Shown: positions 52,806 to 57,361 of the stretch, piece by piece
How the letters are laid out: each line of letters starts with the position of its first letter
Numbering within the stretch: position 1 is the stretch's first letter
Source: Candidatus Thalassarchaeaceae archaeon
GTDB taxonomy: Archaea > Thermoplasmatota > Poseidoniia > Poseidoniales > Thalassarchaeaceae
Direction: 5' to 3'
Assembly: GCA_023700255.1 (NCBI GenBank)
Contig: JAJPRD010000005.1
Coordinates: 2,077 to 66,076 of the forward strand
Length of the DNA stretch: 64,000 nt
The notes under the pieces: model-generated
The model's database searches: none
Told to the model about the DNA's origin: nothing
What the model saw: the letters and a program-made list of their open reading frames with translations, nothing else
Position numbers and translations under genes: made by a program

Positions 52806-53522
52806 CTAAATTTGTATTACTGTTACCGGTTCGATAACCAAAATATATGAGACCATTGTCCATTCAATTTCATAATCTTCATCAGAATCAACTATTTCTC
52901 CTACAATTGGCGCTGGAGGGGCGCTAATATCTGCAGTTATTGTGGCACTCCAAGTTCCTCTTCCAAATCCCATATCATTCCATTGTTCTCTGATTTCTTG
53001 TTCAGTAACATCACCTTGGGTAATATTATCTCCAGTATAATTTTCTGTTACATCCCACCTCATTGTAAACCCTGATCCTCCTCCACCCGTGCAAGTTCCT
53101 TGTTCAGTTAAATCTTCAAAATCTCCTTCAACTCCACTCAAATCACTAGTTCCATCCACACTATCAGAAAATCCTGGTCCTGGATCATCGTTATCCATAC
53201 AACTAATTGATAATTCAACATAGCCAATATTCATCTCACTAGTTATATCAAAAAATGAATCATATGACTCTTCATCTGCTAGGTTTATAGTTTCAGATAG
53301 AACTTCAGTAGTCTCTTCGAAACTAATGCTCCACTCACCATTAATTCCACTAGAGTCACCTACCATTTTATCATCAATTAATGAAGGCATTACTGCAAAA
53401 TAAGATGGAAATGCAATCATAAATACTACAGTCCACATCAGCATTGTTCTCTTACGAGAAGTATTGACCAGATCTTCAAAGTCCATGGAAACTATCTTTC
53501 GGTCACACTGATGACATTTCAA
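52806..53522 (-). CDS. Hypothetical single-pass membrane protein with an acidic extracytoplasmic domain
   Basis: N-terminal CHQC, one TM (MLMWTVVFMIAFPSYFAVM), then an acidic domain of about 190 aa related to the symporter C-terminus (see findings). Confidence 0.55.
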   Translation of the reverse strand: MKCHQCDRKIVSMDFEDLVNTSRKRTMLMWTVVFMIAFPSYFAVMPSLIDDKMVGDSSGINGEWSISFEETTEVLSETINLADEESYDSFFDITSEMNIGYVELSISCMDNDDPGPGFSDSVDGTSDLSGVEGDFEDLTEQGTCTGGGGSGFTMRWDVTENYTGDNITQGDVTEQEIREQWNDMGFGRGTWSATITADISAPPAPIVGEIVDSDEDYEIEWTMVSYILVIEPVTVIQI

Positions 53523-53544: not shown

Positions 53545-54051
53545 TTATTCTTCGGAAAAATCAATATTAGACCATCTATTGATATCTATTCCTTCTTTCT
53601 TAAACTGTGATTTAGATTTATAAAACTCAGGTTGAAAATAACCAATCATCGAACGCTCTCCAAATTTCCATTTCCAAGGGCATCTTTTCAATCTAGAACA
53701 CCATTCATTTAGTAGATTAGTCCAAACCTTTCCTTCTATCTCAGCAGGTACTTCAAAAGATAAAATGGTTATTTTTCCAGCTGAACCAGGTGTGTGCGAC
53801 CATGTCCTCATCGATAGTCCAATTGAGTCCCCTTCATCAACAACTAATCCCAACACTCTAACTATTCTGCTGAGGGGCATAACTACTGCCCATCTGCTGA
53901 CCATCTTAGTTTCTTCAACTCTATGCATTTTCCAGTTACGATGTTCTCCAATTTCTCTCAATGCCCTTATTGCATCAGTAGGTGTGACACTGACAGGTAT
54001 TTCGATCAATCGACTGGACATCATGTAGAGTTCCTCTAGGCCCTCGCCCAT
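53545..54051 (-). CDS. Hypothetical protein
   Basis: 168-aa ORF in the same orientation as its neighbours. No recognisable motif. Confidence 0.45.
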   Translation of the reverse strand: MGEGLEELYMMSSRLIEIPVSVTPTDAIRALREIGEHRNWKMHRVEETKMVSRWAVVMPLSRIVRVLGLVVDEGDSIGLSMRTWSHTPGSAGKITILSFEVPAEIEGKVWTNLLNEWCSRLKRCPWKWKFGERSMIGYFQPEFYKSKSQFKKEGIDINRWSNIDFSEE

Positions 54052-54085: not shown

Positions 54086-54394
54086 TTATCCAAAGAGAGA
54101 ACCTAGTCCGTCGAAGCCACCGGCTTCTTCTTCAGGTTCTTCTTCTACAACTGCTTCAGCAGGTGCACTATCGCCACCGCCGCCAGAAGCAGCAGGAGCA
54201 GATGATGCAGCCGGTGCAGCCATAGCAGTAGCCATAGCTTCACTAATATCAACAGATCCAAGTGATGTGATTAAAGCCTTAATTCGGCCTTTATCCGCAT
54301 CTACGCCAGCAGCAGTTAATACTCCGCTAACACTTTTTTCGTCAATCTCTTTCTCAGCAGAGTGCAGTAACATTGCAGCATATACATATTCCAT
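54086..54394 (-). CDS. rpl12: Ribosomal stalk protein P1 (aP1/L12e)
   Basis: MEYVYAAMLLHSAEKEI..., an Ala-rich hinge, and the acidic tail EEEAGGFDGLGSLFG. ATG 54394 is preceded by aaggtga. Confidence 0.9.
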   Translation of the reverse strand: MEYVYAAMLLHSAEKEIDEKSVSGVLTAAGVDADKGRIKALITSLGSVDISEAMATAMAAPAASSAPAASGGGGDSAPAEAVVEEEPEEEAGGFDGLGSLFG

Positions 54395-54411
54395 TTTTTT
54401 CACCTTTATTT

Positions 54412-55431
54412 TTAACCGAAGAGATCGCCAAGTCCACCGAACCCAGCATCTTCTTCTTCCTCTTCTTCCACTTCGGCAGCAGGAGCCGAAGCACCTGCAT
54501 CCGATCCTACCGTTTCAGAGGATACGGTAGCAGCACTAGAAGCAGCACCAAGTGCTGCTGTTAGTTCTTCATCAAGTGCTGAGGAATCTAGTTGGCTGGC
54601 TAATGCCAGCATTCGTGCATTTGCACGCATTACAAAGTATTCAGCAGTCTTGTCGTTGACAATACCTGCTTCGACGGCAACTGCGAGTGCTTCGCTGCTA
54701 GCCTTTGATAGTAATATTGGAGTCGTTTCATTAGAGAACCAACGAGCATTACATGCCAGATTGAAAGCACGAGATGTTGCAATAACTACATCATCTCTGA
54801 ATTCATCTAGGTCCAAATCTAAATCGTCTGCTGGCATTAATAAACCATCTTCAATAACGCCAATTAGCATTAATCCAATTTCTATTGGATTAATCCCTAG
54901 TTTCGCTAACATCATACCAAGATCTGCTGACATAGGTTCTCCAGCATTTACTACAGTGGTATCTTTTGGAATAGCTATTTTTCCTCTTTCAATTTTAGCA
55001 GGAATTCCAACAGCATTGAATTCACCAACTAATGGCCCAGGTGCGAACTCCGTTGGGCCAGCTGGAACTACAATATCGATTGGAGCCAATTCTCCTTCTT
55101 TAGCTGCACGTCCCTGACGTGTTTTCTTTAACTCATTGAATAATTCGTAAGAATTTAATTTATCACTGTGCACTAAACAAGGTTGTGTTGCACCTTCGAA
55201 AATAACTTCTAACTCTTCTGCAACACGTCCAGTTTGTAACCATGCTAATCTAATAAGCGTCTTTTTTGCCATTGTCATAGTAAGAACGTCTCTGAGAGAG
55301 CTTCGCATATCTAACATATTTTTTGCTGGTACTCCACCGATGTCAACTATGCCTACTACTCCGTTACCACTGATAATTTCAACCAGTTCATTAACACGGC
55401 CTTCTTTCCAAGTAGCTATCTTTGGGATCAT
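54412..55431 (-). CDS. rpl10: Ribosomal protein uL10 (acidic stalk protein P0)
   Basis: Length, position, and the C-terminal EEEEEEDAGFGGLGDLFG tail. Overlaps rpl1 by 4 nt (ATGA). Confidence 0.9.
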   Translation of the reverse strand: MIPKIATWKEGRVNELVEIISGNGVVGIVDIGGVPAKNMLDMRSSLRDVLTMTMAKKTLIRLAWLQTGRVAEELEVIFEGATQPCLVHSDKLNSYELFNELKKTRQGRAAKEGELAPIDIVVPAGPTEFAPGPLVGEFNAVGIPAKIERGKIAIPKDTTVVNAGEPMSADLGMMLAKLGINPIEIGLMLIGVIEDGLLMPADDLDLDLDEFRDDVVIATSRAFNLACNARWFSNETTPILLSKASSEALAVAVEAGIVNDKTAEYFVMRANARMLALASQLDSSALDEELTAALGAASSAATVSSETVGSDAGASAPAAEVEEEEEEDAGFGGLGDLFG

Positions 55432-56075
55432 GAGTTAGCAACCTCCACTTTAATTGCTGGTCCCATTGAAGTTTTTATGTAGCAAGATCTGATGTTGCTA
55501 GGGCCACGATCTAATTTACCCATCACTCTTTTCCAAATGGCTAATGCATTAGCAGTCAACTCTTCTATTGTTTGACTTCGTGTACCTATTGCAATGTGAA
55601 AAGTGACCTTATCTCTAGAACGTACGATTGCAGTATCCTTTAGTCCACCTGCTATCATTGCAGGATCTACCGGTGGAGGAACTGGACGTGGCATTTTTCC
55701 ACGAGGACCTAGAACTACTCCGAGGAATCTTCCCACGGTTCCCATATGAGGTATCTCAGATAAGAAGAAATCAAAATTATTTGCCATCTTCCTAGCAGTT
55801 TGACGATTTCCACCCAAGTCTTCGATTGTAGATGGATCAATGATTTCTAAACCAGCTTTTCTAGCCTTAGCTGCCATTTCTCCACCAGCAAACATTGCTA
55901 TTTTTACTTCCTTTCCTCTTCCTGAAGGAAGTCTTACTTCTTCTTGGATACGATTTGATGGGTTTTTAAGATCAACATCTTTCAATGTGATGGACATTTC
56001 TAATGATTCAATGAACTTACGTTCAGGAGATTCATCAAGAGCTGTTTGAATTGCGTTTTGTAAACTTTTTTCCAT
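55428..56075 (-). CDS. rpl1: Ribosomal protein uL1
   Basis: 215 aa. FIESLEMSITLKDVDLK, GKEVKIAMFA and GPRGKMP, plus its position in the conserved cluster. Confidence 0.9.
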   Translation of the reverse strand: MEKSLQNAIQTALDESPERKFIESLEMSITLKDVDLKNPSNRIQEEVRLPSGRGKEVKIAMFAGGEMAAKARKAGLEIIDPSTIEDLGGNRQTARKMANNFDFFLSEIPHMGTVGRFLGVVLGPRGKMPRPVPPPVDPAMIAGGLKDTAIVRSRDKVTFHIAIGTRSQTIEELTANALAIWKRVMGKLDRGPSNIRSCYIKTSMGPAIKVEVANS

Positions 56076-56130
56076 TTTCTTTCACCCCTGCGGTTAACGA
56101 AGTTTCCTTCTCCCGTAACTCGTGTCTGAC

Positions 56131-56409
56131 TTAACTAAAATGCTCGCTAAATCTCCCTTCACTCATTGCACTCAATGCTTCCTTAGGAACCATTCCTTCT
56201 ACACTGACTCTCATAGATACACAAGTCCCCATTACTTCACGGCATCTTGCATACAAAGTACTACCAGTCAAACGGTCTTTTTGTGTTTCTGCAATCTCTT
56301 TAACTTGATCCATTGTCAAGTTCTCAGTTGCAGCTTCCCAAGACCCATTACAAGATTTAATTCCCAGTTTCTGATTGACCAAATGTGGTGTTTCATTTCT
56401 ATCTGACAT
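56131..56409 (-). CDS. rpl11: Ribosomal protein uL11, C-terminal (rRNA-binding) domain only; the N-terminal domain is absent from the locus
   Basis: 92 aa that align by eye to residues about 70-160 of archaeal L11 (LGIK...NLTMDQVKEIAE...REVMGTCVSMRVSVEG). The ATG is preceded by AGGAGGT at 6-nt spacing. Confidence 0.8.
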   Translation of the reverse strand: MSDRNETPHLVNQKLGIKSCNGSWEAATENLTMDQVKEIAETQKDRLTGSTLYARCREVMGTCVSMRVSVEGMVPKEALSAMSEGRFSEHFS

Positions 56410-56494
56410 TGTGTAACCTCCTGTAATTGTGTCTCGCCGACCTACTCGCCCTATTTCATATTGATGTAAAAACTAATTTCCTTGATTCTCCAAA

Positions 56495-57361
56495 TCACTC
56501 TACTCTTTGAGTAACTCTTACTTGGTCTGCTCGCACAGTCAAAGCAACCGGTACAGCCGCTTCGAATAATTCAACCGTAACTTCTTCTTTTGATTCAGTG
56601 ACACGTATTACACGAGCATTTTGACCTCTAAACGCTCCTCCAACTATTTCACAAAGACTTCCTTCTTCTATACCAGAAGTTGCAGCTTTTGGTTCTAGAT
56701 AAGGTAGAACATCTTCTAATGGAGATTCACCGGGCAAAACCTTTCTACAATTTTTTAACGGAGTAACTCCAATTCCAACTCTCCCTATTAATTTCTCAAC
56801 ATGATGTAATGCGGACGCTTCAACGAAAATATATCCTCTCATAAAGTGAGGATTCAAAACTCCAAAAATCTCATCTTGGATATCTAGTAGGGAACCTGTT
56901 CCAGATAACCTCGCACGAATTTCTTTTGCGACATTTTGCTCTTGTCCAATTGATGTCTTGAGAATGTATAGATATGAAGCAACGTCTCCATACATTTCTG
57001 TCAACTTTGGAGTTGAATATTCTTTATCCTTAATTCTACCTGGGTCTACCCATTCACAATTTTTGTATAGAGTGGTTGGCTTGATGTCATCCGAACTACA
57101 AATACATAGAATTGGTGTAACATCATTTAATCTATTTCCATATTCTAATCCACGTGCAGCCCCAGTTCTAACAAATTCAAAACTTTCTTCAGATAAGCCC
57201 GTACATTCAGATACTCTTTTTGCTACAATTTCTAAATCACTTGGATCACCTAATCCATAGATTCCATCCCATGCACCAGGGAAGTCAGAGATTCCATCCG
57301 CTCTTTGCATTAGCAAAACTTTTTCTTCATTTCTTAGATAAACTGTGAATGCTTCAGACAT
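56495..57361 (-). CDS. spt5: Transcription elongation factor Spt5 (NusG; NGN+KOW) with an N-terminal Nudix-like extension of about 128 aa
   Basis: C-terminal half: YILKTSIGQEQNVAKEI...GYIFVEA... (NGN) and EGSLCEIVGGAFRGQNARVIRV (KOW). The N-terminal half is Nudix-fold-like: KVLLMQRADGISDFPGAWDGIYG. Confidence 0.85.
   Translation of the reverse strand: MSEAFTVYLRNEEKVLLMQRADGISDFPGAWDGIYGLGDPSDLEIVAKRVSECTGLSEESFEFVRTGAARGLEYGNRLNDVTPILCICSSDDIKPTTLYKNCEWVDPGRIKDKEYSTPKLTEMYGDVASYLYILKTSIGQEQNVAKEIRARLSGTGSLLDIQDEIFGVLNPHFMRGYIFVEASALHHVEKLIGRVGIGVTPLKNCRKVLPGESPLEDVLPYLEPKAATSGIEEGSLCEIVGGAFRGQNARVIRVTESKEEVTVELFEAAVPVALTVRADQVRVTQRVE

Follow-up and report, generated by a model that had tools for sequence, protein, structure and literature searches.

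A one-domain form of ribosomal protein uL11, comprising the C-terminal rRNA-binding domain, in Marine Group II archaea

Introduction

Ribosomal protein uL11 occurs universally and is built of two domains. Textbooks describe the N-terminal one as the site contacted by the elongation, release and initiation GTPases of translation; it is also the protein wall, and thereby half, of the pocket for thiostrepton and micrococcin. The C-terminal domain suffices by itself to bind and stabilize the helix 43/44 rRNA domain. The DNA analyzed here (the whole 64-kb stretch, hereafter the window) has, at the place in the stalk gene cluster where uL11 belongs, a gene of 92 codons. This raises the question of where the N-terminal domain has gone: whether it is encoded elsewhere, has been replaced by another protein, is missing through error or decay, or is genuinely dispensed with.

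Results

The 92-codon rpl11 encodes a C-terminal domain

The genes in this region lie on the same strand in the order ftsZ, secE, spt5, rpl11, rpl1, rpl10 (P0) and rpl12. The relevant features are:

56495..57361, minus strand: spt5, 288 aa; NGN and KOW domains after a lineage-specific N-terminal extension of ~125 aa
56410..56494, minus strand: spt5–rpl11 spacer, 85 nt; Shine-Dalgarno sequence at 56422-56416, in-frame TAG at 56475-56473
56435..56456, minus strand: core of a conserved spacer block of ~35 nt, GCATCA..TCAAATAGGGAGAGCAGGTCGGCG; block region 56430-56470
56131..56409, minus strand: rpl11 (uL11), 92 codons and a stop codon; only the rRNA-binding C-terminal domain with the archaeal C-terminal helix
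55428..56075, minus strand: rpl1 (uL1), 215 aa; PF00687, 3.8e-44
54412..55431, minus strand: rpl10/P0 (uL10), 339 aa; PF00466 and PF17777, archaeal insertion domain kept
54086..54403, minus strand: rpl12/P1 stalk protein, 105 aa; PF00428, 7.5e-13

A preliminary description of this DNA had placed a 92-codon rpl11 between spt5 and rpl1 and had read its product as the C-terminal rRNA-binding domain alone. Both statements hold: the ORF and its neighbors were confirmed, and the sole Pfam match of the product is PF00298 (39.8 bits, cut-off 21.4, residues 8–68), with no Pfam match to PF03946, the N-terminal factor-contacting domain with the GPPLGP loop. A phmmer search against PDB sequences aligned residues 7–91 to residues 73–158 of the L11 proteins of P. 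furiosus (4V6U) and M. jannaschii (5COL). The protein starts at the inter-domain hinge, where its MSDRNE-TPH-LVNQKLG is equivalent to ..G-TPPT-SALIKKELG of canonical L11. The start codon is an ATG and, as described earlier, the strong Shine-Dalgarno sequence AGGAGGT ends 6 nt before it. Equally, the 85 nt that separate the gene from the spt5 stop codon are, as had been argued, too short for the missing domain, and encode no N-terminal domain in any frame.

The product covers only positions 73–158 of the 164 positions of NF002232, the NCBIfam equivalog model for archaeal L11. Its score, 61.9 bits, falls short of the cut-off (162), which is why NCBI records label the 92-aa product 'hypothetical protein'. 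Two defining features of the uL11 family as curated, PF03946 and the equivalog score, are therefore lacking. By its position in the orthologous slot between spt5 and rpl1, and by the homology of its C-terminal domain, the 92-codon gene is nevertheless the uL11 orthologue.

Search for an N-terminal domain encoded elsewhere

Split genes occur in archaea, and the N-terminal domain could be the product of a relocated gene, or be fused to another protein, and join the ribosome in trans. A domain HMM was built from seven archaeal N-terminal domains and used in six-frame searches. The best value in the window was E 0.99, which is noise and agrees with the earlier statement that no other ORF in the window carries the domain. 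Among 87 Marine Group II loci (3–5 kb flanks) nothing was found at E ≤ 1, as against 1e-30 to 4e-32 with the same HMM in control loci (Marine Group III, Methanomassiliicoccales-like and frameshifted).

Two database searches extended the scope. A profile search of a 5.8-billion-protein collection for stand-alone domains of 38–122 aa gave 1346 matches, the best 120 of which comprised only singletons, contig-end fragments or frameshifted canonical genes; none of these 120 had the many-contig marine signature typical of the short C-terminal-domain clusters, which sit on up to 571 contigs. In the other search, residues 1–68 of Marine Group III L11 were scored against candidates of 86–273 aa. The matches listed were from Marine Group III (69–96% identity), followed by Methanomassiliicoccales, methanogens and DPANN, the ultra-small archaea; none of the N-terminal domains among them was labelled Marine Group II, and the nearest ones to those of Marine Group III were thus from other orders. 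Likewise, there was no full-length L11 labelled Marine Group II among the matches listed in two protein searches. Both of the searches for the N-terminal domain covered the best 120 matches and needed shared 5-residue words, so that a very divergent domain, stand-alone or fused, could escape them.

Several candidates were set aside. The apparently stand-alone N-terminal domains found on long contigs (P0289, P0290, P0358, P0385 and P0575) were frameshifted canonical genes. A full-length L11 beside a long Spt5 (P0571) came from Methanomassiliicoccales-like organisms, in which the Spt5 extension is of an unrelated kind. The extension of the adjoining Spt5 was rejected as a relocated L11 N-terminal domain because hhalign gave a probability of 0.3% against the N-terminal-domain profile.

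One further locus deserves mention for its own sake. On a 1.86-Mb contig (L094, 2645-3478), L11 appears as two ORFs, a 94-aa N-terminal and a 66-aa C-terminal one, and spt5 is interrupted too. Indel errors are the apparent cause; they imitate a split gene, and counsel caution in stand-alone-domain searches.

The in trans arrangement thus draws on the precedent of split genes and on the limit of 120 matches to each database search. It is made improbable by the clean negatives beside controls near 1e-30, by the want of an abundant marine stand-alone cluster among the matches listed, by the frameshifted nature of the long-contig candidates, by the Spt5 result, and by general knowledge that an untethered L11 N-terminal domain binds rRNA only weakly by itself. 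Taken over the whole genome, the N-terminal domain is likely absent.

Neighboring genes and the spt5–rpl11 spacer

Alternatively, the N-terminal domain may have been lost and its place taken by an unrelated, lineage-specific protein. The example considered was a 168-aa protein encoded directly after rpl12 (53545-54051, minus strand), which has no Pfam or NCBIfam match and so belongs to no known family, and which is well conserved among the 70 Marine Group II loci that have it (27 invariant columns). Against such a role, the link of this protein to uL11 is through gene position alone; its AF2 model (pLDDT 78) gave only weak START/Bet v 1-like fold matches (TM ~0.3, not significant) and is nothing like the L11 N-terminal domain; and the C-terminal-only loci of Woesearchaeota and Aenigmarchaeota described below have no such neighbor. 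With neither a family match nor a significant fold match, the 168-aa protein was rejected as an N-terminal-domain analogue, and replacement in general seems about as improbable as a domain supplied in trans.

Beyond the 168-aa gene lies an ORF (52806-53522, minus strand) for a very acidic protein of 238 aa with a TTG start, one N-terminal hydrophobic segment and no family match. An ORF of similar size comes after the 168-aa gene in related loci.

Spt5 also differs between the groups compared. That of Marine Group II is 288–300 aa long with a conserved extension, that of Marine Group III is 175 aa without it, and the Spt5 of the Woesearchaeota and Aenigmarchaeota loci is 149 aa and lacks an extension of the Marine Group II type. 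In the window the extension corresponds to 56987-57361 (minus strand), and has a weak NUDIX match (E 0.009) with a degenerate Nudix box.

The ~35-nt block in the spacer consists of a TATA-like box and a conserved downstream block, is unique within the window, and is kept across Marine Group II loci that range from 37% to 62% G+C, whatever the reading frame. Because it is conserved as nucleotides across differing frames, it was rejected as a relic of N-terminal-domain coding. A structured RNA leader was likewise rejected, as RNAalifold predicted no pairs in a consensus structure of the block and the spacer had no Rfam match. The TATA-like box and the downstream block point to a probable internal promoter or operator, possibly autoregulatory, of rpl11-rpl1-rpl10-rpl12; the ends of two RNA contigs, at 56442 and 56417, fit such an element weakly.

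Conservation, transcription and selection

The sequence of the locus was recovered repeatedly. DNA contigs (Logan) from three independent studies are identical over 55900-56900, with no gap, and five metatranscriptome runs, drawn from four studies, yielded contigs that cover rpl11 with no indel, insertion or junction, some of them extending from rpl1 into spt5. The ~200 nt that reads might have restored between spt5 and rpl11, a check proposed in the preliminary description, is therefore found in neither the DNA nor the RNA contigs that cross the locus. The RNA contigs show that rpl11 is transcribed, with the proviso that metatranscriptome contigs can carry DNA contamination.

The short form is also widespread. 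At least 120 protein clusters among the matches listed have it, almost all of exactly 92 aa and with 57–96% identity; their sources are named Poseidoniales, Thalassarchaeaceae or Thermoplasmatota, and their contigs reach 794 kb, with further members on single contigs of 1.2 and 1.6 Mb. When one genome per GTDB species was scanned, 361 stretches proved to encode it. Each of the best 80 of these 361 bears the label Marine Group II, Poseidoniales or Thalassarchaeaceae or a broader archaeal name, and they include the single-cell genomes AG-422-I22 and AG-457-A01 as well as assemblies whose isolate names suggest long reads. Comparison of related loci, another check proposed, showed the short form to be conserved: all 86 short-form genes examined are 92 codons long and begin with ATG, with a stop codon in frame 3–105 nt upstream. 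In related loci the order ftsZ-secE-spt5-rpl11-rpl1-rpl10-rpl12 is identical. The median pairwise dN/dS (Nei-Gojobori) of short-form rpl11 is 0.055, which indicates strong purifying selection.

Thus, the short uL11 is conserved, expressed biology across the sampled order, and the truncation, which had been judged genuine from the one sequence, is so on the strength of the identical contigs, the 361 stretches and the dN/dS ratio. An origin in artefact or decay, to which the short length and the 'hypothetical protein' label might point, is scarcely credible. Deletion or misassembly, listed earlier as an explanation, is refuted by independent identical contigs and order-wide conservation in species representatives. 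A pseudogene or degenerate paralogue beside a full-length rpl11 finds no support, given the orthologous slot at every locus, the lack of any listed full-length match labelled Marine Group II, and the transcription, invariant length and start codon, and low dN/dS of the gene.

Timing and recurrence of the loss

In Marine Group III, the sister order in the class Poseidoniia, the gene that immediately follows spt5, again in the ftsZ-secE-spt5 context, encodes an L11 of 156 aa with both domains, which passes NF002232 with 174.6 bits. The loss is accordingly placed on the Marine Group II stem. In a maximum-likelihood tree made from C-terminal domains only, the short forms of Marine Group II were monophyletic (99/96), and the clade took in divergent variants of 91, 93 and 101 aa that share the signature CNGSWE. 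One loss, later than the divergence of Marine Group II from Marine Group III, would account for this distribution.

C-terminal-only uL11 was also found in two DPANN lineages:

L088/L089, 5001-5270: Woesearchaeota C-terminal-only uL11, directly after spt5, its start overlapping the spt5 stop codon
L095/L096, 3001-3417: Aenigmarchaeota C-terminal-only uL11 of 138 aa, directly after spt5, with a tail rich in Lys and Glu

The first (P0443), from marine Woesearchaeota, is 89 aa long and occurs on 141 contigs of up to 448 kb. The second (P0148) groups with a full-length Aenigmarchaeota L11 at 97/92 in the C-terminal-domain tree. Judged from their sequences, both have origins independent of that in Marine Group II; with two further lineages having a C-terminal-only uL11, loss of the N-terminal domain appears to be recurrent.

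Structure and proposed function

The AF2 model of the 92-aa uL11 has a pLDDT of 83.8. Its top Foldseek match is 5d8h_C, M. jannaschii L11 in the P-stalk base crystal structure 5D8H (TM 0.86, rmsd 1.4 Å over 87 columns), and all the significant fold matches are L11 C-terminal domains. Among Marine Group II short forms the motif MGTCVSM of the RNA-contact helix shows little or no variation. The modelled fold and the retained GTC.SM helix point to binding of helix 43/44 in the assembled large subunit.

In two-domain uL11, rRNA binding falls to the C-terminal domain and contact with factors to the N-terminal one, and mutations of the N-terminal GPLG motif in yeast bring poly-Phe synthesis down to 9–32% (PMC9122527). 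Against the reading favored here, translation without the N-terminal domain would call for some compensation. The following scheme is proposed. On the Poseidoniales stem, once Marine Group III had branched off, ~70 codons at the start of the gene, which specified the N-terminal domain, would have been lost, and a new ATG would have become fixed at the inter-domain hinge. The resulting stand-alone C-terminal domain of 92 residues would dock on helices 43/44 of 23S rRNA beside P0 and stabilize the fold of the GTPase-associated center, as engineered C-terminal L11 fragments do in vitro. Factor recruitment and GTPase activation would then rest on the P0–P1 stalk tails, the sarcin-ricin loop and rRNA alone, and the pocket for thiopeptides (thiostrepton) would lack its protein side. 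Incorporation of the 92-aa protein into ribosomes, its consequences for function and insensitivity to thiopeptides are what this scheme would lead one to expect.

Discussion

The evidence favors a natural GTPase-associated center without a uL11 N-terminal domain. Of the explanations offered in the preliminary description, this is the best supported, by the fold, by conservation and by the negative domain searches. We consider it likely that the 92-codon gene encodes the orthologous and probably only uL11 of this organism, that its first ~70 codons were lost on the Poseidoniales stem, and that its GTPase-associated center does naturally without the N-terminal domain. The broader proposition, that all Poseidoniales ribosomes work without this domain and that it was lost independently in at least two DPANN lineages, seems to us fairly probable, though less so. 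No description of a natural uL11 without an N-terminal domain, in Marine Group II or any archaeon, was found in full-text searches of the literature.

An order-wide and strongly selected one-domain uL11 in archaea that rank among the most abundant of the surface ocean would mean that the N-terminal domain can be dispensed with in nature. If so, a near-universal 'switch' of the GTPase-associated center is dispensable where the archaeal P-stalk is present, and abundant ocean archaea live without the protein half of a thiopeptide-binding pocket; altered thiopeptide sensitivity is predicted for Marine Group II. These archaea could serve as a natural system for asking what the N-terminal domain of uL11 contributes, and the independent DPANN losses suggest that the evolutionary route is a recurrent one. 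There is a practical side as well: PF03946 and the L11 equivalog model will count as missing in Marine Group II genomes, which affects completeness estimates and annotation.

Comparison with known forms of uL11

The Marine Group II protein shares with canonical archaeal uL11 (NF002232; PF03946 plus PF00298) its gene position after spt5 and the GTC.SM motif. Like the L11 proteins of M. jannaschii (5D8H/5COL) and P. furiosus (4V6U), it has the three-helix rRNA-binding domain and the archaeal C-terminal helix, with 38% identity to 5d8h_C. It differs in that canonical residues 1 to ~72, the GPPLGP-loop domain, are entirely absent, and in that the canonical GSGEP loop is replaced by the lineage-specific motif CNGSWE. 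The uL11 of Marine Group III (P0399, locus L091), from the same class and in the same ftsZ-secE-spt5-rpl11 context, has a homologous C-terminal domain (36% identity) but, unlike the Marine Group II form, keeps both domains. The Woesearchaeota and Aenigmarchaeota forms (P0443 and P0148) likewise follow spt5, match PF00298 only and occur on many contigs, but are without the CNGSWE signature.

The C-terminal domain of L11 alone folds and binds the 58-nt rRNA domain, and PDB entries 1HC8 and 1Y39 are examples of RNA-complex structures with engineered C-terminal fragments of bacterial L11. Cells without L11 or its N-terminal domain are viable, as L11-deficient E. coli and uL11-null yeast illustrate. 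Phenotypes of the yeast uL11 knock-out are cited in PMC9122527. Those fragments and strains are constructs from the laboratory, or mutants whose growth or fidelity is impaired, whereas in Marine Group II the one-domain uL11 is the wild-type state of an entire and very abundant order.
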